64,000 bases of DNA. Source: Octopus sinensis (taxonomy: Eukaryota). The position numbers and the translations under genes are program-made. This document shows positions 12,700-61,281 of the stretch, in pieces. Under the pieces are notes generated by a model that saw nothing but the letters and a program-made list of their open reading frames with translations, was not told the DNA's origin and did not search any database. The stretch is taken from NCBI RefSeq assembly GCF_006345805.1, contig NW_021832232.1, forward strand, positions 248,001 to 312,000, written 5' to 3'. How positions within the stretch are numbered: position 1 is the stretch's first letter; each line of letters opens with the position of its first letter.

Positions 12700-14520
12700 T
12701 AGGTAAAAAGTGTAATCATTAATTTAATTAGTTAATCAATTTCTCAAGCTTCCTTTGACAAAATTCACTTCTGAAAATAGAGATTCACAGGCATACGTCG
12801 ATGAAAAAATTATTATTATCGCGATCGTTAATTTTTTTAAACAGCAAAATTTATCAGGAATGGAATTCCATACTGTCAGTATTTCGTCTTGTGAGGTCTT
12901 TTCATGTGAAACTGATAATTGATCATTTTCAATTATTTCCAAAGTATTTCTCAAATCAACAAATTTTTGTTTCCAAATAGAACTGTAATGTAGATCTATT
13001 AGCTGCATTTCCAGATCTTAAAAATTTATCCATTCTAGAATCTTCAAATTAAGTTTATTAAATCTGAATATATTATAAATTTGGATGTTTGAGAAAATGG
13101 TTTGAATTCAACAAATCTCGAAGAAAATTCATGAATTATTGACTGAATTAACGATGAAAATTCAAAAATTTGTTTAGGTAGATCTATTTTTTATGGAAAG
13201 TTAATATAATTTTAGGAATTTTTTAGTATTTTAAAAATATTTAAAATTGTTGAAAAGTACGTCAAGGTTAAGAACAACGACTTTGGCCTCAAATGCCTGA
13301 ATTGAATCAATCGCGTGATATATTAATTTATTACCACCTTGCAAATCTAGTTCAATTTATTTAAATGGCACGTAAAATCTGCAAAAAATGTTAGTTTAAG
13401 GATCCATCCAAGGTCCATTAATTGTGGATACTTATCACTTACTTTTTCACTATGTAAAAATATTTGCACTTCATCCAAACACTGGACAAATCGTTCAAGA
13501 ACTTTTCCACAGCTCAACATATTTATAAAAAACCCATATGTACAGAATTTACTTCATTTAATAATGTCTGAATTTTTTTTATGTAAGGACCGAGCAGATA
13601 TGAAGTTAATTATTTTTATGACAACGATTGTAATGTGCTCGAATCCAGATTTTGCACATAAAACCTGAAGGTTGTAAGAAAAAACAATGAATGATGTAAT
13701 GAAATCCAAGAACTGGATGCCCGACGTGCCATGTAACTAAGCTGACAAAACCATTATTCTTTCAATCATACTGGGTGGAACCATCTGTGGTTATTGATAC
13801 TATTTTTGAAATATCTATCCTTTTCTCTGTGATCGAATTTACAACTGTGTTAAAAATATCGACTCCTTTATTAGTTGTTGCTAATGCTGGCAAACACAAT
13901 AATTGTTCCATAATAGTATTCACGGCGCAATATCTGACAAAATTGCTAGGCGTGACAATCCAGATATGTCAGTACTTTCGTCAACACAAAGGGAAATGAA
14001 ATCACAAGACTTAATATCTTTACTTTGTTAAATAGAGATATTTTCACTCATCACCAAAATTTTTTCCTTTACCGTGTTTCGTGAGAGGGAAATATTTTTT
14101 ATTTTTTCTATAATTTTTGGATTTTCTTTGAATAAGAATGGTGCACATTTTATTCACGCTTCTTTTATATATTCACCATCAGAAAAAAGCTTCCCATGCT
14201 TCGCAATAACATGAGAAATAACATAACTAGCACTGATTGAATCAGATTGACCGTTAACAAGTGTTCTGAGTGATTCTGATTGTTGAGAGTTCTTTTTAAC
14301 TGAGATGCAAGTGTTTCTTTTTGTTCATCCTTAGTTTTCTCAGATTATGATTTGTGAATATTTTAAAAATGGCGTTTTATTTAAGATGTTCGGCAAGCAA
14401 TTTAGCCGGAGCACAACACACATAAAGCTTTGTCGCCTAAAAATAAAAAATTAATATTAACCTCTGTTCAGCAACCTATATTTTTTAATCCATGAATTTT
14501 GAAATGCTCTATTTGGGAAA
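12700..14520 (-). pseudogene. Decayed hAT transposase (GTF2IRD2-like) with a 25-nt intron
   Basis: BED-like KALCVLC follows the intron at 14437-14461. The C-terminus reads FSSTYACESLFSEVNFVK. It has many stops and frameshifts. Confidence 0.8.
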
Positions 14521-14544
14521 ACCTCTATTTTTGGGGTAGTTTGA

Positions 14545-16463
14545 AAAAGATAATTTTGTTGTCAGACTGCAGAATTTTTGGTGGACCATAGGAAAGAAAT
14601 ATAGTTTTCAATGATTCCGAAACTGTAACTGCTTCTTTATTTTCTATTTATTTGGCAAAGAAAAATTTTGACATTCATAAGATGTTTATAGGAATCATTT
14701 ATATCTGAATAAAACGAAAGATCGACTAAATCAACTTGATAGATAAAAATAAACTATGGAATGAACCGTTATCGAGGTTAGCACACCTATCATTAGATTT
14801 AATATTACCTCCAGAATTTACGAAATTTTTTAAGAAAACGAAATTTTTTTAGTCCTGAAAAATCTTCTGGTATTGTATTATTTATTAAAAAATTAAGAAT
14901 ATTCTTATTCTCCTGATCATCCTTTACAATGTTGGCAAATCTCATTCGGATAATACAGTCGGACCTCGGTTTGAGCCACATGGTGGCTCATAAACCGAGG
15001 TTGTATCATAAACCGAGGTTGTATCATAAACCGAGGTTCGCTAATAATCCTAATTAACAGTACTTTAAGTAAAAAATAGTTCACAAGAAACAGATAGAAA
15101 CAGTTCATAAGTTATACTTTTTTGAAATAATGCGTAATCTTTTCTCCAAAACAATTTTTATCCCGTAAATTAATCATTATTTTTTTCCTTAGGGAGTAGA
15201 AATCATTTAATAATTCTGGAGAAAGTTTTCATATATTTTCCTCCATATTATTAATAAGAGTCAGTGGATCTATGATGTCTGTTGATTCAGGCCCATTATA
15301 AAAATTTATTTCGCTTTCAAGCAATTCTTCGACAGACTTCGTTCACCATCTCTGTCACGTCCGTATGAATCTTCGAATTGATATTTATTGTTTCCTCCCA
15401 TCTACACTCAAAAATTTTTTTCCAACAATTTTGAATTTGATTTGAAGTTACATTGGCCCAGGCTTCAGAAATTAGTTGCATCACATTCCGTAAATTGAGA
15501 CTTTTAATTGCTTCCAAAAAATTGCTTCTATTTTCACAAATGCATCCAAATTCGATAAGTAAATTACTGTAATCTGTCTTCAGTGCTTTAATTATGCCCA
15601 TATCCAATGGCTGAACTAACGATGTAGTGTTTTTAGGTAAATATAAAAATTCATTAAAAACCCAGCTTTTAAAAATTTCAGTTGTCATCCACGAATTTTT
15701 GAAGCCAACCATTAGACGATTTGAAATTATTCAATGATAATTTTGAAGCGACCATCGACCCAATTTTCTTAATGGTCGGTCCAGATAAGGGAACTTTTTC
15801 AAGTCACAATTTGTGAAAAATTTCGAAAACTTTAAGATCGAGATTTTTAAGCTTTTCAGAATCACTAGTTTGCTCGGATAAATCAGAATAAATAGTTCCA
15901 TTATCAAGAAAAGGGAAATCTTTTTTATACGTGAAATTGTAGCCCTGCTAGCGTTGAAAATTTCCGCAATTCTTCGCTCTGAAAGCTGGTTCCGTTTAAT
16001 ATATTGGGCTATTTCGAGTTTTTTTTCGTGATCAATTTTCATTTTAGGCATCTAGAAAACATAGAACAGTGGAAAATACTTCAACAAAGATAACAACGTG
16101 ACAAAGAAAAAATTCTTTAAAATAAACGATAAAATATATAAAATAAAAATAACTATATTACAAAATATTTAGTTTATAGCAACTTTTAGATGGCTCATAA
16201 CGAGGTCTATTTTTAATTGATTTTTACAAACCCCTTAGGAAAAAAGCAGTTTCAAAAAACGTGGCTCAAAAATAGAGTTTGTATCATAAAGCGAGTATGG
16301 ATCATACCCGAGGTCTGGCTCATAACGAGGTCCGACTGTATTATCTTAAAGTGCGAAATCATCTTTAATATTGAGTTGATAATTGTCGAGAGCTTAATTC
16401 AACGTTAAATCCAAGGTCACAGCGTTTCACTTTAGGCACGCGTTTCATTTATGACGCGTGACA
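14545..16463 (-). mobile_element. Ginger2-like element remnant, interrupted by a Tigger
   Basis: The TGTCACGCGTCATAAATGAAACG end at 16463 matches 37540. The integrase piece YGPPKILQSDN at 14550-14680 matches 37800-38035. Confidence 0.7.
14956..16338 (-). mobile_element. pogo/Tigger DNA transposon, internally deleted
   Basis: TIR CAGTCGGACCTCG, TA TSD on both sides, subterminal TCATAAACCGAGG repeats, an HTH ORF and the LPKNTTSLVQPLDMGIIKALK motif. Confidence 0.92.
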
Positions 16464-16475
16464 ATTAATAACTTC

Positions 16476-16630
16476 GGTCGACGGATTTCAAGGACAAGCC
16501 ACAATCCAAGAGAGTATTCTTGGCTCCTGGAACGTCTGTCTATTGCTGTGATCTGAGGGAACAGCTTCGCCATTCGCGAGGCTGGCCGGGTGTCTCGTGA
16601 GGCCATTAATTAGCTTAGCTATCTATTTTC
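16476..16630 (+). mobile_element. CRE-like retroelement 3' tail
   Basis: Near-identical to the reverse complement of 10095-10245, including the TTAGCTTAGCTATC 3' UTR. Confidence 0.85.
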
Positions 16631-16631
16631 T

Positions 16632-17199
16632 TTGATGGTTGATGTTATACCAAAAAAAATTAATAACTATCGGCAACAGATTTCTAGTTCAACTTTTTTA
16701 GTTGACAGTGAGAAAGAAAATTTTGACACGATAATTGCTGACGTAATTGCTGAAAATGAAGAAGAAAATGATGATGAGACAATATATGACCAAACTGAAT
16801 GCAAATGTTCACACTTGCACACGATAACAGGAATGAATAACCTTGAAGAGAATATTCACCGTTAGTTTCCTGATGCGTTAAAAGACTATTACAATTTCAG
16901 AAAAATATTGGGCATATATATGAAGAAATCTGCAACAGGAAACAAAATAACAGATTATTTTCGTGTAATAGAATAAAAAAAATTTTTCTACTTAAAAATA
17001 CTCTAATTATCAATAAAATTAGTGAAAACATGTTTAAATGTTCTTTAAAATACTTTACTTATTTATAAATTAATGAAAATATACTAAAACTATTAAAATG
17101 TTTATAAAAATGAAGAAAATTTCAGACCTCCATTTTTGGGAAAACTTCCATTTTTGGGGCAATTTTTCAAAATTGATGCCCCAAATGGAGGTTATACTG
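16632..17199 (+). mobile_element. Tigger 3' fragment with right TIR
   Basis: NNLEENI...KITDYF C-terminus as in the 26559 element; ends CCCCAAATGGAGGTTATACTG followed by TA. Confidence 0.7.
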
Positions 17200-17239
17200 T
17201 ACCATTTAATAAAACAAAATGTTAAAATTATTAAAAAGA

Positions 17240-19280
17240 ATTAATCCATACTTCATATGGTGTGTGAAGAGATGGTGCGGTTGCTGGCACGGGTACGGCC
17301 ATCTACTATATGAATCGGTTGAAGATCAAAAATTTGAAAATAGAAAACGAAACCACCTGTGAATTTGTGTCTCTCGAGTTATTATGTGGATAAGAGTGGA
17401 TTCTGATCGGGGGAATGTACTCTAAGAAATTAGTTGAAAACAAAAACTCAATTGCTGATTTCTTCAAACGCAATTAATTTGTACTGATTGCTTAAGATCT
17501 AAACTCTAAATGCCTATCTTTTGGCTATCAAAAAAAAATCGAGATGGAAAAATCCTGCAGACTGTATCCGATCAAGTTTGTTTTGACGTTTGGACAACGG
17601 AAAAACCAAATCATTTTTCATGCCATGGAGATGATTTCTTAGCGCTGTTCTTAACTTCACCCTCATTAAAGCTCTTATGTCAACTCCCGAGGATAATCGA
17701 AGACATCGGCAGTGATCATGCCCCCAGATGATGACTATAATGCTGTATCTAACATTAATGGAGGATATCTTTTAGCACTATAGAACCGCAAAAACGGACT
17801 GGGCCTTCTATGAACTATTCATTTCTTCTAAACTTGGAAACTCCTGTTTGGCAGTTGAGGAGAATGAAGATGCAATAGAAAGAACAGATGACTACATTAG
17901 AAGCCTGTTGAGCAGCTTTTTGAAGAAGTACTCTGAAAAAATCTACTCAAAACAGAAAATCCCAAATACTTCCGGGGTCTACGAAAAAATATTGTGCTTA
18001 AAAAATAGACTTATGTCAAAGCTTAAAAGATGCTTGGATCTCCTAGACCAGTGGTTCTCAAACTGGGGTACGTGTACCCCTGGGAGTCAATAGTAGAATA
18101 CGAGATCTATCCGAAAACATAAAAGAACAAGTTATTTTCTGGTTAATTATTATTTCATTACTGAAATAAAAAGTGCTGCCAAAATATCACAAAATCGGAT
18201 TTTATATAATCGATTTTTTGTTTTTGTTTCCGACTAAATATCTCTGTAAACAAGGATTTTTATTGTTGTTTAGTTTAAAATCAGTTCATCTTGCAAGGCT
18301 GAGTGTTGTTCATGATATTCGGGTGTGTCTTTCGTCAAAGGATCCAGAAATCGATTGATTAGTGGTTGATAAACAAAACCATCCATCTCATTAATTAAAT
18401 AAGTTTTTTCCTTAATTTGTTTAAAAATCGATAAGGGGTGCGCGAAAAATTATTTAGCTGGCAAGGGGTACGCAAGGCAAAAAAGTTTGAGAACCACCCA
18501 AAGCCTCCTTGAGTAAAATACACAAGCAGATTGAAACGTTACTTAATTAGTGAGTCTGAGACCCAAGAAGCAATAAGGGCAGCCAAAAATGCGGCCTCAA
18601 AATATGACAAGATTCCAATGGCCTGTTTTAAGCATGCACCGAATTGTCTGATGTCTCTGCTTACAAACCTCTTCAATTCCAGCCTTCAGAGAGGATATGT
18701 TCAAAAGTCATACAAAACCGAAGTTCGAATGGTTCGAAAACTTAAGAAACCTAAAGAAGAAGCCTCGAGCTATAGGCCTATAAGCCTAATTTGGTCTACA
18801 TCAAAGATAATGAAAAATATCATCTATATGGCTAGTACTGCATATATAAAAAAATCGCTGACTCTCTCACGATCAGTGGAATTTTCGCCGGGCCGTTCAT
18901 GTGCTGACTGCATCTATTGACTGAATTCAATAGTATCTAAGGCAAGAGATTCTGGCTTATCGACCAGTATTGTGTGTTTGGATGTGTCGAAGGCTTTTGA
19001 CAGTGTTTGTCATTCCTTCTAACTGGAAAATCTTGAAAATTAATGCAGAAACTCTTGGATGGTTAGCGAGTTTTTTTTGAATGGGAGAATCTCCTTTGTC
19101 AAATATGTTGGTCAAGATTGAAAAGCCATTCTCCGAAAAAGAGGAGTATCTCAAGGCTCAGTTCTCAGCCCATTATTGTTTAACGTGTACATGGCAGACT
19201 TTCCAAAACGTGTGTGCATCTCGACAAATGTGCTTATTTATGCTAGTGACGTTATTATTACGGCGTGAAAATAAGACTAG
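17240..19280 (+). mobile_element. Decayed APE-RT non-LTR retrotransposon (Jockey/I-like)
   Basis: DIGSDHAP endonuclease end, SSYRPISL, LDVSKAFDSV, QGSVLSPLLFNVYMAD; many frameshifts. Confidence 0.8.
18049..18497 (+). mobile_element. hAT MITE inserted in the non-LTR element
   Basis: CAGTGGTTCTCAAAC ... GTTTGAGAACCAC with GGGGTAC subterminal motifs. The left flank is TCCTAGAC; the right terminus is damaged. Confidence 0.8.
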
Positions 19281-19284
19281 TGAG

Positions 19285-19590
19285 GTGACCATAATTCCGG
19301 ATTTTAAGATCTTCAGCGTGATTAGAAGCGAAGCCTGGGTTGACGGTCGACATGGCTAGGTTCCCGTTGGAGAATGTGTCACAGCAGGTAGAATCCCATA
19401 TAAGGCATTTTCCCTGCTCAAAGGGGAATGTAGTTAAGCCGTCAGGGCGTTTGCGTCACCTCTGTCCAAACCGATAGGTTCGAGGACACACGGCACCCCG
19501 GAGGCTTCGAGGAATCTCTTCACAATGTCATTCAGTTCACTATGGCAAGGCGCACGGCCTGCACTACGGAAGCAGGAAAGGGGATGACGA
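19285..19590 (-). mobile_element. CRE-like RLE fragment
   Basis: HPLSCFRSAGRAPCHSELND...LEPIGLDRGD.RPDGLTTFPFEQGKCLIWDSTCCDT. Confidence 0.85.
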
Positions 19591-20040
19591 GAGGATTATA
19601 ATTTTATTTCCTAATTGGATCAACGGGAACTGTAGTTGACGACGACAAAAAAGATTCAAGATTGAATTCTATTTTTGTTAGTCTTTAAAGTCTTCAGAGA
19701 TTTGAAAGATTTGATTTTTCAACCTAAAAAACAAAATTCATTCATTTCCCCGTAATATCGACATCTTAAAATGTCAGGCTTCAATTAGAACATCGGGAAA
19801 TCGATTTTTATTTACAGGGCGATGCTGATTATTTGTAACTAAGATTATAAAAGGTCTTTGGCTTTTTTTCTAAATCCGGGAAATCAGATAAAATCATTGT
19901 TTTCATGTTAAGTGAGTGAAAGTGCAGACTACCTATATAAGCTTAACTCAACAAAATAAAATCTAATGAAAATGAAGACTTTTCTTTTCGTCCGAGCATA
20001 AGAATGTGCCTAAATAATACTATACCATTTCCTATACTAA

Positions 20041-20300
20041 ATGGGATTAACGTCAAACAAAGTGGGATTAACGTCAAACAAAGTGGGATTAAGGTCAAAC
20101 TATGTGGGATTAAGGTCAAACAAAGTGGGATTAACGTCAAACAAAGTGGGATTAAGGTCAAACTATGTGGGATTAAGGTCAAACAAAGTGGGATTAACGT
20201 CAAACAAAGTGGGATTAAGGTCAAACTATGTGGGATTAACGTCAAACTAAATGGGATTAAGGTCAAACTATGTGGGATTAACGTCAAACTAAGTGGATTA
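20041..20300 (+). repeat. 21-bp tandem array, about 12 units (left TIR)
   Basis: Unit GGGATTAA(C/G)GTCAAAC(AAA/TAT)GT. Confidence 0.95.
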
Positions 20301-20745
20301 CGTTTATTATAAATATACCATTTACAACTCTATTTTGCATGTACGAAATTTAATTTGCGGTCAGTAAACTCATTTCTGCAAGTAAGAAATGATTTTTGCG
20401 GTTAAGAAAGTCATTTTGCAATCAAGAAAATTAATTTGCGGTCATGAAAATCGGTTTTGCAAGTGGGAAATTATATTATATTTCGACGCAGCAAATAAAA
20501 ATGCCACGTAAATCATTGGAAGAGAAAAATCAAATGCATAGAAATAAAATACATTTAATTTCAGCTGCAGAATCAGGTGGAGATTGGAAAAAAACAGCAC
20601 TTGAACTCAATATCCCGAGAACAACGAGAACAATATAATTGGATGCATCTCAAATCTAGGACTCATTTACTGTAAAATCCGAAGGGGAGCTTTTAAAAAA
20701 GAGCAGATATGGTTAACATAAAATTTTAAAAAAAGAATTTTTGGT

Positions 20746-20990
20746 GTTAAATCCCACATAGTTTGACCTTAATCCCACTTTGTTTGACGTTAATCCCACA
20801 TAGTTTGACCTTAATCCCACTTTGTTTGACGTTAATCCCACATAGTTTGACCTTAATCCCACTTTGTTTGATGTTAATCCCACATAGTTTGACCTTAATC
20901 CCACTTTGTTTGACCTTAATCCCACTTTGTTTGACGTTAATCCCACATAGTTTGACCTTAATTTCACTTTGTTTGACGTTAATCCCATTT
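20746..20990 (-). repeat. 21-bp tandem array, about 11-12 units (right TIR, inverted)
   Basis: Reverse complement of the same unit. Confidence 0.95.
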
Positions 20991-21818
20991 AGTATAGGAA
21001 ATGGTATAGTCACCTAGTATTTCTTAAAAATTATCTTATTTGTTCCAAATTAAAGGCTACAAAAGACTAATTAAGAATCTATTTCCAATTTCTATAAAAA
21101 AAGTTCTGCAATTGAGATATTATTTCTATACAAGACTCTAATTTCTTGGTTGTTACAAAATGTAATTTAAAACTCAAAGTTAATTTTATTTATAATCATT
21201 CTGGCAGTCTCGACTGGTCTTTTATTATCATTTTATCTACAAGAGTATCACTCAAGTAGAATATATTTCTCGTTAAGTCAGTGAATCTCAGATGTTAAAT
21301 GTGTGATAAAAACATCACTCATTTCGGCGATATAAATATGTCTGAAAAAATTTTTCTATGATTTGTCAATAATTACCTTAAAAGCGTATTCTCAAATGAA
21401 TCAAAAAAATCGAATTATCAGAAAAATTCTGATCAGAAAAAATGTCATTAGAATGTCATTTATACATTGAGTAATGCAGAAAAGATTTTTATTTCCTGTT
21501 GGACAAACCAGCTATCTCCCTTCCATTTAAAAATTAAGTCGAATAAATCCAGATATTAATTAGGTCTTCAAAATATCTATGGGTTTAAGAAAAGTTTTTA
21601 TTATTTCTTGACCACAAAGTGAAATATCGCAGATTAAAAATGTTGGTAAATCTAGATATTAAAAAATCTTTAACAAATCTATGGATTTAGAATTTCTCAC
21701 CAAAGCTTAGTCCTTTTTTATCAAATTTAAAATCTGGAAGAAGAACTTAGTACAGAATTTAGAAAAGCAAATAGAATTAGTCCTGAATTGAAAAAACCAA
21801 AAGTGATTTAAAAACTAA

Positions 21819-23881
21819 TTAATCGACTTCCTGGATAGTTGGTCCGGAATTATCACCAGATGGCGCAGGACCTGAACCATTACCAGAGAATCCACCAGGG
21901 AAACCGCCAGGCATGCCACCAGGCATTCCTCCTGGAGCTCCACCTTGTTGATACATAGCTGTCATAATAGGAGTTGCCACATCTTGCAATTCTTTCATAA
22001 TGCTTTCAAGTTCCTCAATATTAGAATTAGAATGATTGAGAGTGTCCAGTTTGGAGAGAGTGGACGTACATGAACTCTCAAGTTTTTCACGGTCAGAAGA
22101 AGGAATCTTGTCTTTGTTCTTATCATCGGCTATTGTCTGTTTATAGCTGAAACACAATCCTTCAATTTCGTTCTTCTTGGTTACGAAATTTCTAATCCTC
22201 TCGTCATCCTCTTTGAATTTTTCAGATTCGTTGACCATTCTCTCGATTTCTTCTTTACTCAGACGTCCCTGTTCATTTGCAATGGTAACTTTATTTTCTT
22301 TTCCAGTTCCTTTATCCATTGCGGATACGTTGAGAATTCCATTTGCGTCAATATCAAATGTGACTTCAATTTGAGGAACGCCTCGAGGCGCAGGGGGAAT
22401 CCCACTGAGTTCGAATTTTCCAAGAGCATTATTATCCTTGGTCATTGACCGCTCTCCTTCAAACACTTGAATTAACACTCCTGGCTGATTGTCTGCATAG
22501 GTTGTGAATGTCTGAGTCTGCTTCGTTGGGATGGAAACATTTCTTTTTATCAACGGAGTCATTACTCCACCAGCAGTTTCAATTCCAAGAGAAAGTGGTG
22601 CAACATCCAAAAGCAAAAGCTTCTGAACATCTTCGTTCTGTTCGCCCCCCAAAACAGCGCCCTGGACAGCTACAACTATACCACATCTCTATTACCAGCT
22701 CCAAATGCAACAGCTTCATCAGGGTTAATTGATTTGTTCAGTGCCTTATTATTAAAGAACTGAGCAAGCATTGTCTGTATTTTGGGTATTCTGGTCGACC
22801 CTCCAACAAGGATAACTTCGTTGATTTTGGATTTGTCCAATTTGGCATCAGCAAGTGCCGACTCCACTGGCTTGAGAGTCATTTTAAACAAAGAATCGCA
22901 AAGACTTTCAAATCGAGCCTTGGTGATCGTTGTGTTATAATCCTTTCCATCAGCCAATGAATCAATCTCAATCGAGGCCTAAAATATGTATCCACAACAC
23001 ACACCGTCGTGCTATTCGACAATGTTCTCTTTGCTCGTTCACAGGCAGTCCTCAGTCTTCGGAGAGCCCTCTTATTTTTGGAAATATCGACAGATTGCCT
23101 CGTTTGGAACTCATTGACACAATATTCGACCATTTTATTGTCAAAATCTTCGCCACCCAAATGAGTATTTCCATTTGTGGACTTTACTTCGAAAATTCCA
23201 TCTTCAATAGTCAAAATCGAAACATCAAATGTTCCACCGCCAAGGTCAAATATCAGCACATTTTCTTCTCCACTTATCTTCTTATCCAACCCATAGGCAA
23301 TTGCAGCCGCAGTTGGCTCGTTGATAATTCTGAGCACATTCAACCCAGCAATCGATCCAGCATCCTTAGTGGCCGTTCTTTGTGCATCATTGAAGTAAGC
23401 CGGCACAGTAACAACTGCACTGGTCACTTTGTACCCCAGAAAAGACTCAGCGGTTTGTTTCATTAATCCCAAAACTGCGGAAGAAACTTCTTCAGGGGTT
23501 ATAGACTGCTGTTGTCCTTTGTAAACGACATTTATTTTGCATCCTCCGCTGCTGCTGCGGACCACTTTGAAGGGGAAATTTTTTATGTCGGACTGCACGT
23601 AAGAATCATCAAAAGGTCGGCCAATAAGTCTTTTAGCATCATAAATTGTGTTTTCGGGATTTACAGCACACTGGCTTTTGGCTGGGTCACCAATCAGTCG
23701 TTCTGATTCGTTAAAGGCGACATATGAAGGGGTTGTTCTGTTTCCTTGATCATTGGCAATGATTTCCACTTTGCCATTGATAAAGGCACCAACACAGCTG
23801 TAGGTTGTACCGAGGTCAATTCCAATTACTTTTCCAGTAGAAGTCTATTATGGATTAAAATTAAAGAAAGTGACATACCAT
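21819..23881 (-). CDS. HSP70: Cytosolic Hsp70/Hsc70
   Basis: ATG, then intron 23845-23878, then [18 protein letters not shown]. Further introns lie at 22979-23004 and 22670-22695 (26 nt each). Motifs: [30 protein letters not shown] repeats; ends PTIQEVD. Confidence 0.97.
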
Positions 23882-23935
23882 TAACAAGTATTGCGATATT
23901 AAATTGCCGTAACGCTTTTAAAGGAAACGTTGTAG

Positions 23936-23958
23936 AGAATGTGCTGGAAAAATCGAGT
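23936..23958. promoter_or_regulatory. Possible degenerate heat-shock element
   Basis: aGAAtgTGCtgGAAaaATCga about 60 bp upstream of the Hsp70 ATG; only two perfect nGAAn units. Confidence 0.25.
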
Positions 23959-24572
23959 ATGAATTTATTAGTTATCGATTTAAGGTTTTCCATTGTCAAA
24001 CATTAAATATATATTTATAATATTTAATTAATATAAAAAATTTATAATTTTCTAATCTCTGTAAATAATTTAACCTAAAATTAAAAATACTTCCTATAAT
24101 TTAGGCTTTTAAACCAATTTTAAATAAGAACCTAACATGGAGTATACCACTGGTAAAATCCCATGGAAAATTACGGAAAGTAAAAGTGCCTTCTGAATAA
24201 ATTTTTGATATTTGTATCCTTTAGATTTAGTGTTCATAAAAAATTGATAAAGAATGTGGAAATTCTGAGAATTTTCTATGTGAAACGAGTCGAAAATATT
24301 TTATTCTTTGCAACCTTATTCATTCTGTGTATAATAATATAGAATAGACTGGTTACAAAACATAGCTATAGTTATTTAAGATAGCTGGGTGTAAATAATT
24401 CTCTATATACAGTCAACTATTCTTAAAAAGACTAGAAAATATGCTCGCCGTATATCTATTCAACAAGAAACGGCAAATTGCATCTTTTCTGAGTTCAGAG
24501 AATTAGTGTGGAGTGCCACCTCTTGGTTATCCCGAAGATTTAGGACTTAGTTACATAGTTAAATAGTTTAAA

Positions 24573-24735
24573 AGCCCAGATGAAGTTACGTTCTTCCCTT
24601 TCCGAAAGAGTAAATGTCTAGAATGGGACTGTCCATGTACCGACACTTTCTCCTGTCCAATCTTGATAACTTACCTCTCTGTGTGTACTAAAGACCTCAT
24701 GAGATCAAATGGCTGTATCGGCGAGGGAACAGCTA
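24573..24735 (+). mobile_element. Old CRE-like RLE fragment
   Basis: PDEVTFFPFRKSKCLEWDCPCTDTFS...PHEIKWL...RGNS. Confidence 0.65.
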
Positions 24736-25201
24736 AACAATTCTATTTCTTATTATTGATAGAGTTTTGTGAAAATATAAACTCAAATTTCCCTTTGGCT
24801 CGTTCGGATGGAAAGTAGGTCACAGGCGTGATGTGACTTTCTCAAGACAATTTGAGGACAAATATTTTTAAAATTCCTTAAAATTCGCCCATTTTATAGA
24901 TTTAGATTACCATAGTAATTTTATCGGTTTTTTACGAAATTTAATTAACTAATTAAATTACAATGATGACACGTGGATAACCACGTGAGTGGTTTTATTG
25001 TTTATTTCGAGGGACTATTTAATGAATAGTATTCGACTGTTTTGCCAATAAAATTGTATGTCTGTTTTTTAGTTTATTATAATTTTTTTATTATTTAGAA
25101 TTAATTTTTAATTTAAAAATTTCGGTTTGGTGTGTTATTTATACATTTTTTCATAACCTAAGTTTACCTTGATTCATAACATTCTCATTTAGCTCATAGT
25201 A

Positions 25202-25510
25202 ATGTCAGATGAAATAATATATCTGGGAACAGAATATACACCAAAATCTAACGAAACAAAAGTTCAATCATCAATCGACACTCCCACTGTTATTACAAAT
25301 AAGCCTGAAACCATTCCTGAGTCAAATATTGGCCCAATGCAACGACTATATGCGCGTATTGTATCCGCAATTGGGGATATAAACAACGACTTACTGCCAT
25401 CATATGCAGGAAGCAGAACCGCGATGGATCGTTTGAGACGAAATATTGGCCAAGCACGTGCTCTTTGCAAAGAAGGAATTGGAAAAGTGGAAGTTTTAAA
25501 AAGAAAATGA
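25202..25510 (+). CDS. CDK2AP1: CDK2-associated protein (DOC-1/CDK2AP family, NuRD subunit), intronless
   Basis: YARIVSAIGDINNDLLPSYAGSRTAMDRLRRNIGQARALCKE matches the family motif [42 protein letters not shown]. Confidence 0.88.
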   Translation: MSDEIIYLGTEYTPKSNETKVQSSIDTPTVITNKPETIPESNIGPMQRLYARIVSAIGDINNDLLPSYAGSRTAMDRLRRNIGQARALCKEGIGKVEVLKRK

Positions 25511-26558
25511 TTCCATTTTTGTCTATTTCGTAAATCTAAATATCCTTTCTTACTTTTTCATAATTTTCATGAATATTTAATTCATGGAAGATTTAATTAA
25601 ATAAAAAATGAATGTAAATTTTTTTAAATAATTTAATTGTTTACACCAGCGGTTCTCAACCGGGAGTCGCTTCGGGGGTCAAATCAGCCCAGATCGATCG
25701 TAGGGGGTCGAAACCAAATTTTCATAAGAAATCTTTTTCTCATCCAAAAATAATTTGACTATAGTAAAAATAGAAAATCCAGTATTATCAGTTTCCAAAT
25801 ATTTGACGAAAAATAAATCTTCTGTAAGAATAGCATGATCGTCAAAATATCTTAAAAAGTAAGCATTTAACAAGATTAACCTGACATATCTTATTAGAAT
25901 TGATTGGTCTATCTAAATGTTTTCTTCTAAGATGATCCAACAATTTGGACGGTTTCATTGCATCATTTGATAATGATTTATTACACAATAAGCAGTGTGG
26001 TCCATTATCAAAGGAATTTTTTATAAATTTAAATGCCAACGTCTTGTGGTTCACGCTGAGGTTATATTTTCCAATTTTATTTTATAGGTGCGATGGTTAT
26101 CAAAGGGAAATGCATTAGAACGATTTTTAATATTATTTGACACAATGGTGAATTTTCTAACTTCTGAGGGTGACAAAAATTTAGCAGATTTAATTGTATT
26201 GAAAAGAAAGAAATTATTTATTTGACGTGGATTTTTGGAAAATTTAATGAAATTTCATTAGAACTTCAGGGAAAGTATGTGACGTTAATAGATTGTAAAA
26301 GAATTATTCAAATATTTTTCAAAAAATAAAGTTGTATAAATATAACTTGGAAAAAAAATTATTATAATATTCCCTAATTCCAATCAATTTATCAAACATT
26401 TGATGAAGATATTAACAACTTTTTGCAACATTTATTAAGTATAAAAAAGATTTGATTCTTCAATTCCAAGATATTCTTGAATTAGAAATACCATCTTGGA
26501 TGATTAATCCTTTTTTATCGAAGCCAGAAGAAGAAAAAAATATATTAAAGAGGAATTA

Positions 26559-29430
26559 CAGTACGACCCCGGTTTGGGGCAGACCCCATGGGTGGGGCAC
26601 CCTCGGGTTTTGGGGCACCCCCGCTTTTAGGGGCAGTTTTTGAAAACAGTAAATTTTTCATTCTATTATTTATTTTTGATGACCCCGGTTTGGGGCACTT
26701 ATTTAATTTATTTAATTACAAAATGTTAGTTTATTTATTAATTATTAATTAATACTATTATTTCACGTGTTTATTTTGACTTTAGTATGGTTCGTAAAAA
26801 GAATTCAAAGATTAATTATGAAACAAAAATTAAAATCGCTAAAGATATAAAACATGGTCAATTTTCAGAAAGAGATCTTGCTAAAAAGTATAAAACGAGC
26901 AAAGGTATCTTTTTTAACTAATTATTAATTACAGGTACTATTTCTCGCATTAAACAAAATTTTGTTTATTATTTTGACGCGGGATTAACTGAATCCGATA
27001 GAATCAAGGAATCACATGATCCAAATAATGAATTAGATAGATTAGTTTTTGAAACTTTTCTACGTCTGAGAGATGAATTTCTTCCAATTTCTGGAACTAT
27101 CTTAAAACTGATTGCAAAAAAATTATCTAAAAAGATAAATTATGAATCATTTAAGGCAGGCATTCTCAACCTTTTTTTGTTCATCGCCCCCTTAGATATT
27201 TTGTCGCCCCCCTTTGAAATGTTATCGCCCCCTTGTCCACCTACAATTTAAAAATTTTTTGGCATTGTCCCTTAATTGGTTGTTTTTTGTACATAACTCA
27301 AAAATCAAAATATAAAATTATAAATCAAATGTAAAAAATTGAATTTTTATTAAAAATTATTAGTGAGACCCTTGATATTGATGTTTACTCGCTAAATATT
27401 CTATGTCGGGTTTAATTCTGCTCAACTTTAGGCGTATATCGCCTCTATAACACACTTCCAGTCTATTTTTTTCACATTGTGTATTATGATTGACAAAACT
27501 AAATCCACTTTTAACCAAATAAGTGGTAGGGAATGTCAATAGTACATTACTCATTTCCTTCCATAAATTTGGAAATTTCATTTGTAGATCTTTTGATTGC
27601 CAAAATTTAGAGATACCATCCTGTTGAAATCTGTGAATATATTCTTCATTATATTTAAATTCAATTATCTCTTCTTGGATTGTTTCGTTCATATCTTCTG
27701 GCACACATGAAAACGGATCAATCATCCATGCTTCAAATTCCAAATCAAACAAATCTTTGAATCTAAGAGATATATCCGCTTCTAGTTCCGTCAAATGTTG
27801 ACAATATGTCAAAATATTGTTTTGACTAAAATATTTACTTATCTCAGATAGTTGTGAAATGTTTCCAAACTGATTTTAGAAAAATTATGTCGATAAAGCA
27901 ATAATTTTTTTCAAATGTTTTCATTATTCTTTTGCAATCAATCATGTTGACAAAATTTCATTAAATTTTGAGTCTAAATTATTAGGCTTGCCATTAAAAA
28001 TATTCTAATTAAATAATTTTTAATAAATATAAATTTTATTTTTTATTAAATATATTATCGCCCCCTGTACAAAATTATCGCCCCCTTGTACAAAATTTTC
28101 GCCCCTAGGGGGCGATTCGCCCCCGGTTGAGAACACCTGATTTAAGGCATCAAATGGATGGCTAGACCGGTTCAAGAAAAGACACGAGTTGCTATTTAAA
28201 ACTATAAGTGGAGAAAAGAATTCATCTGACCTTTCTACGGTTTCCAATTTTTTTGCTGATTATGACAACTGTTTGGAAACTGTAGGAAGTGAAAATATTT
28301 TTAACTGTGATGAAACAGCTTTATACATAAAGCGAACGCCGTCGAAATCTTTTGTTCAATTTAATGACAAATGCAATGGAATTAAAATGAGCAAAGAGAA
28401 AGTTACCCTTCTCCTTTGTTGTAATGCACTTGGTGAAAAGTTAAAACCTCTATTAATTGGAAAATTCAAATCTCCTAGGTGTTTAAAAAATTTTAACGCT
28501 GAGGATCACGGAGTACTATATGCTGCATCAAAAAATTCGTGGATGACTAGTGATATTTTTGGGAAATGGTTATGGAAAGTAAATCAAGATATGATCAATG
28601 AAAAGAGAAAAATTGTCTTAATACTGGATAATGCGAGCTGTCACAGAAATACAGAATATTCCAATGTTTATTTACTTTTTCTTCCCAAAAATACGACCGC
28701 TTTAATTCAACCCCTAGATATGGGAATAATAAAATCCTTCAAGTCCCTCTATTTCAATAAACTGATTGATTTTACTCTTATATTTGAAAAAGAACAGCTT
28801 TCTGATTTGAATTTGAATAATGTCAATCTTAGACAAGTCATTACAGTTGTCGGGGAGGCATGGAAAATGATGTCAGAGACAACGATAATTAATTGCTGGC
28901 AGAAAATAAATGAAAACAGATCAAAAATTTCGGATAATGTACAGTTGGACGAAGAATTAATAGATGACGTGATTTCAGATGTTATTTCAATGGATTCGAC
29001 AGATATTATTGAGGACAAAATTACTTATGATGGATATGAATCTAAAAAATCATCAATTAAAGAAATCATAAACATCGTGAATTCTCTAGAAGATAATATT
29101 TTCAGTACATGTCCACAATTTTTGAAAATCTACTACGAATTTAGAAAAAAACCTATCAGGAGAACTGAAAAAAAACCAATTCGGTGAGAAAATTACTGAT
29201 TACTTTTAATAGTATTTTTGTTGGATTTATTAAAATTTTTAAATTTTATTAAGAAAGGACTATGTTAGAATTTTTATTAATATTAAATAATTTTAATTTA
29301 TAGTCTAAAATGCAATAAAAATCTATTGAGGAGAAAATAAAAGCAAAAAATCTTTACCCTCGCATTTTGGGGCACCCCCGCTTTTTGGGGCACTATGATA
29401 AAAATGCTGCCCCAAACCGGGGTCGTACTG
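26559..29430 (+). mobile_element. Near full-length pogo/Tigger transposon; its transposase has a 30-nt intron and is split by a hAT element
   Basis: Perfect 24-bp TIR CAGTACGACCCCGGTTTGGGGCAG with TA TSD. ATG 26787, intron 26905-26934. FKASNGWLDRFKKRH is restored after removing 27157-28139. NCDET, LILDNASCH and QPLDMGII motifs are present. Confidence 0.95.
27157..28139 (-). mobile_element. Non-autonomous hAT (Buster) element, 983 bp
   Basis: CAGGCATTCTCAACC / GGTTGAGAACACCTG, 8-bp TSD ATTTAAGG, ATCGCCCCC subterminal repeats, ORF with FPTTYLVKSGFS. Confidence 0.93.
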
Positions 29431-29479
29431 TAATTACTTTAAAATTCAATCCAGAATTAAAACTATTATAAAATTATTC

Positions 29480-31089: not shown

Positions 31090-33125
<2,036 letters not shown>

Positions 33126-54118: not shown

Positions 54119-56793
54119 ATGGAATTTGAACAACTTTGTAAATCCTTATGCAACAAAATTGTCAAAAAACATGATGGTCTCTATTTTAGTTAACAACGCT
54201 TTTAGGATCAGAACAGAGCCTTATAAAATTCAGCCTTGGCCATCTCATGCAGTAAGCATACATTATATCAGTCACAATTCATTAAATTCCTTTATAAAAA
54301 TAGAAATCGCAATTCTGATTTTGAAAGAGTCGACGAAATGAGAATTGTTGACCTTTTAAGGAAACAAAATGGACCAGGACGGCAAATCACTCGACTCTTT
54401 GAACTATTGAGACGAATTCGCCAATCGAGGAATGATTCGGGAAGATTTGTCGCCTTTATTTACCACTTACTCAAAAAATGTGGTTTCCCTTCCCACAAAC
54501 ACACACTTTCCCTCCAAAACTCTCAAAATTCTGTCTCGGGAAACAGGATTCTCCCGGTCGGACGACAGATTGTCCCAAAAACTAGCAGTTGTGTGGAAAT
54601 GATCATTTAGTGGTCGAAAAGTACAGACAGGAACAAGATTTCGTAATCAGCGACGCCTTAAACCTAATCCAGGACATTGATTTGGGGTACAGCCCTGCAG
54701 AGAAGGAATTTGGGTTAAATTAGGTGTAGTTGTCCCAGCCATTGGCAGACCGGGCCTCCAGACTGAGGGAAATTGGCTGGCTGTTCGGCAAAGTGGAGGC
54801 AATGTCGGGCAATCGAGAGGAATCAGGCACTCCATACTTAGTTATGAAGGTTATTTGACTGGCTTAGTTGAGTAGGCATTCCAATACTCCCTCAAACAAG
54901 AGCTTGTGGATTATTATGGACTTGTATCGACAATGGCTTCACATATAAACCAACAAATATCACAAAAGAATGTCACACAAAGTCTGAGTTTGACTCGAAT
55001 TGAGGTGTCCTTCTACGATATGAAAAAGACATTGAAAGCACTGGGAATGATCAGTGAGAGTTGTCTGGGTGGGGAGTGTGTCTGACTCCACTAGACAAGA
55101 AGGGGGGAGAACTGATATCCCACATCTACCAATATTGGTCGTGTAGTGGTGATCCCTTCATTCGGGAGTTGGTGGAGAGATTGCTTAGACTGACTTTGGA
55201 ACCACTGATGCGCTTCATTCTTACTTTCGTGCAATCTGGTGTCATTCACGACCCTTATTTAGAGGTTTGTGCTCTCCTTTTGTTTTTATAGTTTTTTGTG
55301 TCGTTGAATCCCGGAGTCGGGGACCACGAGATTTGGACATACAAATATATAATTCGCAAGTCAATGATTCCGACCTTTCTGAGCATTAAACAAGCAGAAA
55401 TGGTAAAGTGGACTGAACTAGCATAGATTTTGTCGATTGGTCGTTGTGTCGCATTTCTGGGCTATATCGAGGACCCCACGTTGGTCAAGTCCTCACAATT
55501 CATTCAACTCACCTCCAAATTATTCTCAGACGGTACAATCACAATATTATTTCAATCAGGCTATTTTATGTACTCAGACAACGAGGAATTTGAACTAAGA
55601 CTGTTCAAAATACACAAAATGGCGAATAGCCACGTTTTGAAGGCCTTTTCGAGGATTCATCGCTTTGTGGAACACATAAGTGCGATCCGCCGATACCTGC
55701 TGCTCTCACAAGGGGACTTTGTTCGGCATTTGATGGATTTGCTGGAGTTGTTTTGTGATTGGTAGGGTTTAGACCTGAACTGAGCAAGTCTGCCAGTCTC
55801 CAGCAAAGACACACACTCAATTCAATTCTCGACTCAGCAATCAGGAGTACAAGTGCCCAATATGAGTCCGATTGTGTAATCGAGAGACTTTCTGTTCGAC
55901 TTCTTCAGCTGGCCAATGATGAGGTCGGCTGGGATGTCTTTACCCTAAACTATGAGCTCCCTCTGGCTCTGAACACTGTTGATTGATGTGTGCTGAGGTG
56001 TAGGTGATAGGACATGACGCAATGCTGATGTATTTGCGTGCTTTTAACTTTCTGTGGAGGTCCAAACGACTGGAGTATACTCTGTCTGCAGCCTGGCTCA
56101 GTCTAATCCACAATTCCCGTCGTTTGAGGAAACTTGTGGGTTGATTTAGTGATGAGGGATGGGTTAGAGTTGAGACCTGTTCTGCACGTGTGTTTCACTC
56201 TCCTTTCCAGTATGATTCAATTTGTGGCACAGATTCAGTATTATCTTAACTTTGAGGTGGGTTGGATTCACTAATTCGCAGGTCTTGGAATGTGCTTGGG
56301 ATGCCTTTCTTCAGAGTTTGGAGACTGTTGTTGACTTGAATGACTTGGCAGCTGCTCATAATGTGTTTCTGAAGACCATCCTGGTTGGATCCTTCATTGA
56401 CGATTCTTCCCTGGTGTGCCTGGTTGTCCCGATTGTAGGAGTTGTTGGGAGAACTGAGAAGTATATTCGACATTGTAGTACAGTTTGAGCACCATTTAAA
56501 CTTGCTTATTTCCGAGGCCTTTGGTGAGTATTCCCGATGTGAAAAGGTTGGGGATTTTATTATTCGGGCAGACGGGCGAATGTGGTTTTGACGCGAGAAG
56601 GTTTAGCATTCACGTGGCGGATTATAAGTCCAGATTTGACGTGTATTCCCTTACATTCAAGGTTGCGTTGCCTTCTGGTCATTGGTAGGAGAAAGTCAAG
56701 TTTTTTTTGTGCTCGCTTTTGACGAATGATACTGATGACCTCAAATTCCTTGGTTTTCGACTCGATTTTAACAATTTTTATTTCACAAAATGA
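54119..56793 (+). CDS. TUBGCP3: Gamma-tubulin complex component 3
   Basis: IWTYKYIIRKSMIPTFL, AIRRYLLLSQGDFVRHLMDLL, GWDVFTLNY, FNFLWRSKRLEY, FEVLECAW, LKFLGFRLDFN; many micro-introns. Confidence 0.92.
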
Positions 56794-56970
56794 CATTTTT
56801 GTCTATCATACGCGCATTCCATCTACCTTTTACCTTACTTGCTTTTTAATAGAAAGCCTACTGACTGAATGTTCAAATAAGAGCCTCGCAATAAATATAC
56901 TAATTTGATGTAATTTAACCAGACTCTTAACATGACATAATTAGACATTGAGTGTAGCAATTGAAAACAA

Positions 56971-57773
56971 TCAAATAAGTTCAACACGGTTGGATAGGAC
57001 AAGATCTCTGATGAGGTCATAACGAATAATGAACTGGTCGTCCTTACTAAGATTGACGATATTATTCCTGATAATAAGAGCACACACCACACCTCCCAGT
57101 TGTCTGATCTCCCAACACCACCTGCCCCATATTCTCCAAACACCGAATATACACAAATCTGTGCAAATACGGCTTAGGGAAATTGGACTCTGCACAGTCA
57201 GGACTACTCACCACCCTTCTCGCATTCCTTAAAGTGCCGCATGTTTATCGGCAAGTGGGCCAGTCCATGATACCGAATATACCCCTTTATCAAGTCGTTG
57301 AAACTGCCCTCCACACAAACACTACCCTTTTAGAAAGTCCAATTCGTAGGAAGACAGCACATGATAGTTGCCCAGTTGTTGGTAGTGTTCCATGCAGTCC
57401 TCGATCTGCACTCTCAGCCATATTAATACTTTTTTGAGGCGACAACGCAGATATGACGACACCAAATACTTGAGGCGCTCATTCTACGATATTATTGAGT
57501 GGGGATTGCCTCCAGTTGGTGAAGACTCACTCGTAGGTCACGTGTTCTTACAGATTTTATATTCTGGTCAATAAGGGTTATTTGGGAGATCAGGGCTGCG
57601 ACAAGTTCCTCGTTGTGTGGCAACAATTCAGGCGCTAACTTCTCATTCTGGAAAGCCTTTTTACTTGTTGCTTATTGGTTATATAGTTTTACGATGTAAA
57701 GTCGTCTGACGAGTTCTTCTACGCTTATTTCAACTTCTTCACTGTTTTGTGTCACGTCGCAATCACCAGGCAT
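56971..57773 (-). CDS. GINS4: GINS complex subunit 4 (SLD5)
   Basis: Spliced product AFQNEKLAPELLP...LHQLENERLKYLVSSYLRCRLKKIE...QFIIRYDLIRDLVLSNRVELI; six introns of 22-36 nt. Confidence 0.92.
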
Positions 57774-58173
57774 CACGAAACAGGGATTGTTTATTATTTT
57801 ATTACTAAATTGTAATATTGCTCATAAAAACTTTGAACTTTTTATAAAATTAAATAACTTATTGATTTTAAAATATGTTTCAGATTTTTGAATGTAAAGC
57901 TTCAAAACATTTAAAAATTATGCCAGTTGCCTTAAAGGTCGTCGTTAAAAATTTTTACTTTAAGTAATTCAAGATAAACCACATTTAGTAAATTTAAAAT
58001 AATTTATTTTTCAATATTTGTTTGATTATTTTTAAAAATAAAACATAATATAAACCTTTTTGATGTTGGGTTTCGTTGTTGTGTGTCACCATTAATCACT
58101 GTTTATTCTTGGTTAGAATTTCTCTGGATATTATTTCACATAACAAAACTAAATATTTTCCTAGAATTACCAA

Positions 58174-61100
58174 ATGTCATTTCCTACCCATAAAAAACCC
58201 ATTTCCTTCCCCAAAAGACGTTCATCGAGTGCCACAGTGCAGTCCCTGGATCATTATCCCTCCAAGAATGCCACCTCCTGTCTACGTGAGTCAGAATCTG
58301 CCCCTTTAATAACACTGGCTAATCAAACAGCCCTTCCAGCAAAGGAATGTCCTCACGAAGAGACTTTTCTGAGCCTGAAAAGTTATATAACCCAAAATAA
58401 AACGAGGAAACGTCGTTCAAGGTAATAAAACCAAATAAATTCAGAACAAGGCAGAGGAAGACGGTCAACAAAGACATTCGACTGTTAAAAAAACTCTACA
58501 AGTCAAGTTATCCTCAAGTTGTCGTTTTTTGGCCATTTTTAGGCTTTATCTGAAATGAAGACAAATTTGGAATCATTTTTAGAAAATTCGAATTCCAATT
58601 CTCGCCAAGTCAATGTTCTGCACAATCAAATTGTTTCATTGGCCAGAGATTTGTTGAACAGAATAAAGAAGGGTGATTCCTTCAATTCCAACGACTTTTA
58701 TGTCTTTGAAAGCAACATTCAAGTCCTCATCTCCCACGTAGACAACACGTAGTCCTAATTCCCAGATTGAGACCAAAATGACAGTCGACGTGTCACATTT
58801 GCTCGAGTCTTGTCATTCTTTGCGAGGGATTGTTCGTAGACCTACCAGGCTAATGGAATGCATAGTTGGCCTGTTTTTTAATTTTCAGGAAATTTTGTCT
58901 TCGGAAAAAACGCATTTAGTTGACTTTGAGTATAAATTTGAAACAAACACGGGAAAATATGTGAAGGAACATGTCTTGGGGATGGGACCTGTCCGGCAGT
59001 GTGGTCCCTCTGAGGAAACAGACTTGTCCTGTCAGAATCCACGTGAAAGTGACTTTGAGGAAATAAAGACGATAAGCAGAGGGGCTTACGGGTTTGTCTG
59101 AATAATATTTGTAAGGATTGTTATACTCGTGAAACACGTCAAAACTGGGCTTAACTTTGCGATGAAAAAGATTAGGAAAAGTCTGTTGATGTTACGTAAT
59201 CAAGTCGACCAAGTCTACACTGAGAGAGACATTCTCACATTCAACGACAATCCGTTTGTGGTCAATTTGTTCTGCAGTTTTGAAACTGCGGTTAGTGAGT
59301 GGTGATATTGGTAGAGACATTTATGTATGGTAATGCAGTATGTGGAGGGTGGTGACTGTGCTGCACTCCTCCAAAAGGTTGGCTCGTTTCCCTTCGATTT
59401 GAGTCGGTTGGTCGTCTTTGTGACTGTTTTAGAATATATGTGGCGGAGACTACTCTCGCATTGGAATACCTCCACTCCTATGGAATCGTCCACAGAGATT
59501 TGAAGCCGGACAAGTTGTTGTTTGAGATTACCGTAGTCTGCTGATTACTGCAAAGGGACATATAAAACTGACTGATTTTGGACTGTCCAAGATTGGGCTG
59601 ATTAACAGTGCCATTTGACGTTGCTATTGTAGTGGTGACGGGGTATTGCGAAAAGTCGATCGTCCAGAACTGTCAGGAGTTTAAGGACATGCAAGTGTTT
59701 GGGACACCGGAATATATTGCCCCCGAAGTGATACTTCAGACAGGATATGGTTGAGGACTTGCTGTCTGACCAATTTAGGAAAGCCGGTCGATTTGTGGTC
59801 ACTGGGGATTATTCTTTTTGAATTTCTTGTGGGGACTGTTCCCTACTTTGGAGAAACTCCCGAAGAACTGTTTTCCCATGTCGTCAATGGTTGTTTATTC
59901 ACGTGATGAATAGAAACATTTGAGTGGCCCTCCGAGGCTAATCTGCCCGTGGAAGCAGTGGATATTGTCAACAGACTGCTTCAGCATGACCCAGTAAAGA
60001 GGTTGGGCACTGCCGGACTCGACGAGATCAAAGAACACTGTTTCTTTGATTCGTTGGATTGGAGTGCACTTTTGTGTCAGAAGGTGAGTTATATTCCCAG
60101 TATCAGTGAGGACGATGACGTCAGTTGCTTTGATGGTGCCGACTATTACGTAATCCATAGATCGATCCGACCGTTTCTCCAACCACGGATCGAATGAGAG
60201 TGATGAAGTAACGTCAGACATGTTCAGTTCATTCTCATCTCTATCGCCACTGTATGTAAGTTTGAACACAAACAGAGACGACATAAACTCAAACGTGGAT
60301 GATTTGTGTCATGTTTAGGAGTCGGGTTCGTTCTACAGATATTCCAGCAATCGAGTCCCCCGACGAGTATCTCTTGACCAGTCAAGTCACCCAGTTGACT
60401 CTCCTCTCAGTTTTTGCAATTCCTTCGACACCTCCGTCAGTTCTTGCTGTTAATAATAGTTGGGAGATGAGGACTCCGAGTGCCACAAGATCTCTGTCGA
60501 CAATATATTGGGACACCGGAAAAAGTCACGTGTTTCCCCCATTCCATCTTTCAAAATATCGTCAATCATCAACCCAGAGAGGGAATGTAAAAACTGTACT
60601 TTGATTATTTTTATATTTTAGCATTGAGTCAGGTCTTCAGTTTCCGTAAAACAAGTCCTTCCACTGCCTCCAACACCTCAAGGACGAAAAACGTTTCCAG
60701 ACTGCGTAGGAATGTGGTCATTCACCGTGGACTGTGGGGGTTTGGCTTTCGTGTTTTGGCCCTCCCTAAACGCTCGTCTGAATACCTTAAGCACGTGATT
60801 GATGTTGACTAATATGTATAATATGAGTAGTCTGTGAGTGGACCGGCTGTCGATGTTGGTCTTAAAGTTGGGACTGTCATAACGCATATCAACGGGACGG
60901 ACATTACTCGGATGTCCCATGTTGATGTTGTACGCATTTTGATGAAGAGTGGTCCTGTGGTTGGTCTATATTGTGACTCTCAGTTGAGTCTGTCTATAAT
61001 CGAGAAGCATAATTCGAGGAGGAATCATTTATATCTTTCCAACAGGTTTATCAGTTCATTTCGGAGATGTGAAATCAAGTCGTCGAATGTTTCTGCTCTT

Positions 61101-61281
61101 CGGAGGAGGGTTGGAACTATTGGGGTCACTCCTGTGGTATTCTGCTTTATGGAACTGACAGTTTGATTTCAAAGTTGGATCATCCGTCTCAGATTTGTCA
61201 TATTCTGAACCAAAACTTACTGCTGAACCTAAGATTGATGAAACGTCGTACTGCTGTGATGATTCCAAGCACTCTTGCTAA
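58174..61281 (+). CDS. MAST: Microtubule-associated Ser/Thr kinase (DUF1908-AGC kinase-PDZ)
   Basis: [69 protein letters not shown], and PDZ GFGFRV...GPAVDVGL...ITHING. Confidence 0.93.

Follow-up and report, generated by a model that had tools for sequence, protein, structure and literature searches.

Transposase genes of Tigger and hAT elements in a stretch of octopus-labelled DNA are interrupted by very short GT-AG segments at positions where related elements have none. We consider it probable that these segments are ordinary spliceosomal micro-introns, likely gained singly by Tigger and hAT lineages long resident in a likely dicyemid genome that the elements had entered intron-free. The stretch, referred to here as the window, comprises 64,000 nucleotides (positions 248001-312000 of contig C8703 in assembly G000). 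Family names T1 to T9 (Tigger) and H1 to H17 (hAT) were coined in this analysis.

Three short segments interrupt transposase genes in the window

An earlier note on this DNA had described three such segments, and each was recovered as reported. The first, of 30 nt, lies at 26905-26934 (forward strand) in an AAAG|GT context with GT..AG ends, and its removal gives the motif SKGTISRIK while its retention gives a stop codon. It is a phase 1 intron, at a position that we call site A, in a T1 element (26559-29430, forward strand), where it follows a first transposase exon of 39 codons plus one base (26787-26904, forward strand). The element belongs to the Tigger/pogo group, as judged by a transposase with the HTH_Tnp_Tc5 and Pfam DDE_1 domains, terminal inverted repeats and a TA target duplication, and it measures 1.88 kb when uninterrupted. 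This copy was killed by a deleted hAT inserted into exon 2 (27157-28139, reverse strand), which has an 8-bp target duplication and is the one hAT that was examined for this feature.

The second segment (26061-26087, forward strand, 27 nt, GAG|GT) is a predicted phase 0 intron of family H1, lying between HxE and VRWLS and measuring 20 to 27 nt in other copies; splicing gives HAEVRWLSKG and retention a stop. The H1 copy itself is internally deleted and decayed and spans 25647-26556 (forward strand), its right limit being the T1 insertion point. The third segment (14437-14461, reverse strand, 25 nt, AGAG|GC) is predicted intron 1 of family H2, in phase 1; splicing gives LNRGDKALCVLC and retention a frameshift. 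Its length of 25 nt is one variant, 19 nt being found in six of nine spanning copies. Two further predicted H2 introns survive in the window as relics with approximate limits, recognized by comparison with other copies: intron 2 (13665-13686, reverse strand; 26 to 27 nt elsewhere), which has lost its donor, and intron 3 (13520-13533, reverse strand; 22 to 32 nt elsewhere), which has lost its acceptor. Both families were assigned to hAT by transposase homology with the RW motif and by a C-terminal dimerisation domain, and their relatives carry PF05699.

Insertions are nested to three levels at 25647-29430 (hAT in Tigger T1 in hAT H1), and H2 was also struck by Tigger insertions (near 14507 in the window; loci L081/L083). 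In dead copies the introns shrink through short-repeat deletion with GT and AG kept, from 25 to 19 nt in H2 and from 27 to 20-22 nt in H1 (L062-L075, L032-L038).

The two intron-free elements with which the earlier note had compared these segments are present as described. The Tigger at 15731-16051 (reverse strand), the 5' part of a decayed element, reads SRATISRIK without an intron. At 32350-32370 (reverse strand), a decayed hAT reads HTEIR followed by a stop, and better copies of its family read LFHTE-IRWLSRG, again without an intron. They are not paralogous copies of the interrupted elements, as had been assumed, but members of other families: the first belongs to T2, which shares 49% amino acid identity with T1, and the second to H3, which falls in a different clade from H1. 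Every true copy that we examined retains its intron.

The T1 intron is removed from transcripts

Spliced junctions were sought in contigs of four runs (X2 to X5, with X2 and X5 from different studies) placed on positions 21800-29450. This interval contains a host HSP70 gene (21819-23881, reverse strand), which served as a positive control with spliced introns of 34 nt (23845-23878), 26 nt (22979-23004) and 26 nt (22670-22695). Both 26-nt introns were absent from the X2, X3 and X4 contigs and the 34-nt intron from those of X2 and X3, which indicates that these runs are RNA-derived; for X5, two GT-AG joints and a very uneven depth point to the same origin. The 30-nt T1 intron was removed exactly in X2 (depth 5.07/5.07) and in X5 (12.7/12.7), while X3 and X4 did not cover it, and the X2 contig showed 0 other differences in 321. 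One X5 contig skipped, along with this intron, a GT-AG segment of 98 nt within the 5' leader of T1 (26688-26785, forward strand) that ends just before the ATG and is likely an intron as well. No contig lay over the H1 intron, and the H2 intron is outside the placed interval. When spliced, T1 copy L001 (1 of 17 scorable copies) has a complete 474-amino-acid frame; unspliced frames reach at most 44 amino acids.

These results bear on two other explanations. That decay indels or assembly errors produced the segments, with GT..AG ends arising by chance, is next to impossible and already refuted for T1: although the window copies of H1 and H2 are decayed and the assembly is rich in single-base indels, removal in the reads is exact, the same segment recurs across all copies and no intron was called in 32 control loci. 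The earlier note had also suggested a splicing-dependent switch. Retention would then silence the transposase in some cells, in the manner of the germline-only intron of the P element. Retention would break the frame for 21 of the 26 coding introns described below, and the dependence of intron-bearing elements on host splicing has been discussed (10.1101/656579). Nonetheless, a regulated switch is very improbable, since all X2 and X5 contig depth over the T1 intron represents the spliced form (contigs do drop rare forms), the intron-free family T3 is intact and multi-copy, and intron positions are scattered across domains.

Elsewhere in the placed interval, a 31-nt GT-AG intron at 25162-25192 was spliced in X3 and X4; it directly precedes a 105-amino-acid frame (25193-25510) to which no family has been assigned. 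Compared with window positions 26785-29177, X5 contains T1 with 0 to 1 differences per 180 to 465 bases and nearly none of this HSP70, and its loose ends carry a different HSP70 tail. This pattern hints at a recent transfer of the intron-bearing Tigger between parasite species, although filtering of the reads or mixed infection would be an alternative explanation.

Introns are fixed among the family copies examined

Copies within families were aligned and scored for presence or absence of the introns. Among the fetched loci, which sample the families in part, none of 127 copy-sites spanning 23 of the introns was intron-free. For T1, pairs of exon 1 and exon 2 hits were separated by a spacer of 28 to 30 nt in 34 of 34 cases, drawn from 40 of 45 and 40 of 50 candidates and excluding unpaired hits and one pair with a truncated exon 1 hit. 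Seven odd T1-like loci were also fetched, of which two retain the intron and five result from imprecise deletion. The diverged T1-like loci L272-L275 and L278, considered as intron-free copies, were rejected because their junction was lost through imprecise deletion. Mismatches amounted to at most 0.26% in 18 of 19 long T1 alignments, and this near-identity indicates a recent burst.

The earlier note had proposed that new introns are being created in invading DNA and that the events would be datable. Gain itself is favored by the splicing of T1, by homologues elsewhere that are intron-free at the sites and by the many further sites described below; what finds no support is that it is ongoing, as the introns are fixed within families. 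Nor is datability supported, the T1 intron being older than a split to 59% amino acid identity. Presence/absence polymorphism, the mark of recent gain of the Daphnia type (PMC3488318), was seen in none of the partially sampled copy-sites and T1 pairs. Gain going on now, with such variants among copies or populations, might be argued from the number of sites, most of them confined to a single family, and from the partial sampling. We nevertheless regard it as quite unlikely, given the uniform presence of the introns, the intron-free state of T6, which has a closer outside relative than any other family, and the lack of any resemblance of the introns to their flanks or to one another beyond chance.

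Intron-bearing families are nested among intron-free relatives

Nine Tigger families were found. In T4, precisely site A is occupied by another intron, of 25 nt, whose sequence cannot be aligned with that of the T1 intron; T5 has one intron at another site, T9 has introns at two further sites and lacks one at site A, and T2, T3, T6, T7 and T8 have none. T3, with an intact 465-amino-acid frame and multiple copies, carries the same SKGTISRIK motif without interruption. At site A, relatives without an intron there (T3, T6, T7, T8 and T9) already possess AAA|G or AAG|G. In a tree of 26 rows, eight in-genome families and protein P0123 form a clade (100/97), within which T1 and T4 are sisters (94/89) with 59% amino acid identity and T5 pairs with the intron-free T8 (82/91); T6 groups with an outside protein. 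Outside Tigger proteins that span site A, microsporidian ones included, run through without an intron. None of the four Tigger sites occurs in the outgroups, implying that at least four introns were gained within the radiation. Among named outside relatives of the Tiggers, the nearest (P0129, P0130, P0135, P0136 and P0146) are from microsporidia (Dictyocoela, Cucumispora).

Introns were predicted in nine hAT families (H1, H2, H4 to H9 and H11). H3, H12, H13, H15 and H17 are intron-free, and calls for H10, H14 and H16 are unreliable. H7, H8 and H9 show no stop or frameshift after splicing. At the H1 site, other hAT loci found by motif, representing more than 10 families, run straight through; H1 site 95 is known from a single copy. 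The three predicted H2 introns are absent from the 13 listed outside proteins in which the motif was found, no intron was called in 22 of 22 metagenome loci of H2 relatives, and the closest H2 relatives (L250-L252) read without an intron across each of the three sites at the DNA level. A FastTree phylogeny of 82 rows, from which H2 and H9 were excluded, placed H6+H7, H4+H5, H1+H8 and H11 in separate groups, each amid outside proteins. H11 and H4+H5 have a common intron site in distant clades, and the starred branches force two changes. This phase 0 position ('SY-x|V'; L193, L189, L220) is a candidate for parallel gain, or else marks an old intron that has been lost on many occasions.

The sites are thus intron-free in outgroups and sister families, as expected of de novo gain, at the level of DNA for in-genome families and H2 relatives and at the level of protein for the others. 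Homologues with introns at the same sites, which would instead indicate ancestral introns that shrank, were sought among the outside relatives and none was found. Inheritance from intron-bearing ancestral transposons, whether through an early burst or a gain before intron shrinkage, followed by shortening and by loss in many families, could account for the sites in common between T1 and T4, between H6 and H7 (two) and among H4, H5 and H11. It would also agree with the long branches (0.37 to 1.1 changes per column), with the dominance of loss reported for CACTA transposases (PMC4158355) and with the shortening observed among copies of the H1 and H2 introns (19 to 27 nt). Against it stand the absence of an intron at any site in every outside relative, the four stem gains and then well over ten losses that the Tiggers would need, and the lack of a single precise loss among the copy-sites. 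We judge inheritance unlikely.

Properties of the intron set

With a spliced aligner, 26 coding introns were predicted across 13 Tigger and hAT families, where they occupy about 21 sites. Each intron-bearing family is nested among intron-free relatives, and 16 to 17 of the sites were found in one family only. The introns measure 19 to 33 nt, with a median of 27 nt (host median, 26 nt) and phases distributed 10/9/7; the aligner accepted 17 to 42 nt, a range that longer introns could escape, and imposed GT..AG on all 26. In controls it called no intron in the 22 metagenome hAT loci or in 10 of 10 in-genome loci. Calls discarded as unreliable were those for the T7 C terminus, H10, H14, H16, L186 and L238/L249, together with single calls in L062, L074, L075, L077, L081, L181 and L221; a first H8 call was replaced with two better ones.

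The AG|G proto-splice context that had been noted at the three window segments is indeed present there and is enriched overall, but it is not general: it occurs at 8 of 26 introns, compared with 3 of the 53 introns predicted for the host (Fisher p 0.005; the host count was made by hand from an imprecise parse). Exon flanks favor A G | G T (17, 19, 18 and 16 of 26). Lengths that are multiples of three were found for 14 of 26 introns versus 14 of 53 in the host (p 0.02), a lead only, as sites are not independent. In a preliminary set of 24 introns, two calls of which were later revised, similarity between introns of the kind left by introners did not exceed chance (best z 2.96 among 276 pairs). 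Intron ends in this set likewise did not match the flanking exon, as an AG|GT tandem duplication would predict (p 0.37 and 0.88 against permuted pairs), although such a trace may be lost in old introns.

Probable source and neighboring features of the window

The assembly is 2.72 Gb in size and includes chromosome-sized scaffolds, but all 41 of 41 T1 matches found in it were on small unplaced contigs. The window has a high gene density, a GC content of 35% and animal-type genes, including an SH3-SH2 tyrosine kinase, a PDZ/SH3 protein and the HSP70, whose best protein match shares 75% identity and whose others share 59 to 68%. An ab initio parse gave 53 host introns outside HSP70 with a median of 26 nt; the parse misplaced all 3 HSP70 introns relative to the reads, making host context counts rough. 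A protein 100% identical to that of T1 bears the source label Octopus sinensis. Of the words of the interval 21800-29450, HSP70 included, a share of 0.00 was present in 8 other runs labelled with that species. Dicyemids inhabit cephalopod kidneys and have introns of 26 to 27 nt (PMC2222250, PMC6543705, PMC13644364, PMC6736024). From the octopus source label, the unplaced contigs, the animal-type genes, the intron size and the zero share in other runs, we conclude that the window is likely dicyemid DNA co-assembled with that of the octopus.

Several unplaced contigs (among them C8703, C8702, C9002 and C12459-C12471) are probably part of a parasite genome within the host assembly, and parasite proteins P0121, P0122 and P0124 are labelled with the host species. 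In practical terms, these contigs bear octopus gene annotations, and two of the models supplied by the source (P0121 and P0124) break at the micro-intron.

Other features of the window include predicted introns of gamma-tubulin-complex and MAST-kinase genes (54600-61300) that look GC-richer than those in neighboring genes or transposons. At 19994-21035, two arrays of 21-nt tandem repeats form a 261-nt inverted repeat flanking a 470-nt core, resembling a foldback element, and at 61550-62455 a unit of ~94 nt is repeated in tandem in about ten copies.

Origin of the introns and comparison with known systems

In the scenario that we favor, a short AT-rich insertion would enter a transposase gene, usually at AG|GT or close to it (for the proto-splice site concept, see PMC3488318), and would likely be harmless if removed by a host spliceosome tuned to introns of ~26 nt with minimal signals. 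Because a cut-and-paste element would be copied as DNA, with no RNA step to strip the intron, a master copy would hand it to all descendants as a fixed family trait. As to the inserted DNA, our guess is end-joining repair with filler DNA. The gains are likely recurrent but old, since the branches that carry family-specific introns have lengths of at least about 0.45 changes per column.

Several points weigh against this scenario. Reads confirm 1 of the 26 coding introns and the other 25 come from the aligner, which made false calls near insertions (L186, L222, L238, L249, L176) and whose first H8 and H10 calls were altered when a closer query was used. Outside relatives are mostly represented by proteins alone, some of which may be spliced models, and they share only 43 to 55% identity, leaving room for closer intron-bearing kin outside the sample. 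Only part of the branching order inside the Tigger clade is settled, and the data do not reject a grouping of the four intron-bearing families as one clade (p-AU 0.161). The hAT tree comes from FastTree only, and the one site common to distant hAT clades would likewise fit an old intron. Finally, the dicyemid identity is drawn from indirect signs.

A broader and more tentative possibility is that the dicyemid genome is a hotspot of intron gain, in which an AT-rich insertion of 19 to 33 nt suffices, and that a micro-intron locks a transposon into hosts with micro-introns. If so, insertions at AG|GT would become introns repeatedly, even twice at the same hAT codon, and T1 could move between dicyemid species and yet be dead in animals unable to splice such short introns. 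How introns originate without introners is an open question, with few cases of known ancestral state, and the present set would provide a rare collection of new introns with a known intron-free starting state. About 21 sites are accompanied by sister families of this genome that are free of introns, which opens the choice of site, the phase, the length and parallel gain to direct testing.

Transposase genes are already known to gain introns; micro-intron gains as numerous and independent as these, in multi-copy families, are unreported in the literature searched. That literature contained no account of introns in dicyemid transposons or of micro-introns repeatedly gained by them (most subscription papers were missing from it, and its scope did not extend to supplements such as the repeat tables of PMC6736024), and the available part of PMC8855578 contains nothing on transposon introns. 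One of the nearest parallels is TLEWI, Tc1-like elements of bivalves, which likewise acquired GT-AG introns within one host lineage and whose transcripts are spliced (10.1101/656579). TLEWI form one low-copy group, mostly without inverted repeats, and are read as domesticated, whereas here 13 families of two superfamilies carry introns of 19 to 33 nt, and T1, with its repeats intact and target duplications present, has undergone a recent burst. Domesticated transposon genes of mammals (PMC3257199) follow the same logic, an intron-free ancestor implying gain, and include 5' leader introns; they are single-copy and immobile, while the elements described here still multiply. Among CACTA transposases intron number also differs among families of one DNA-transposon group, but their ancestor had introns and loss prevails (PMC4158355), whereas with the intron-free outgroups found here gain is more parsimonious. 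Introners (PMC9860276, PMC12130899) similarly yield many lineage-specific new introns; they are repeated sequences that make introns, whereas here transposons receive them and no two are alike beyond chance. The ultra-short introns of dicyemids and myxobolids (PMC13644364, PMC6543705, PMC2222250) are, like those described here, GT-AG introns with a median of 26 to 27 nt and minimal signals, and the GC content of the window (35%) is close to that of Dicyema japonicum (36.7%; PMC6736024). Those reports concern host genes with shrunken introns at conserved ancestral positions, whereas the introns described here occupy positions that relatives lack, in multi-copy transposons. This suggests that a parasite genome known for intron shrinkage has added introns to incoming genes.

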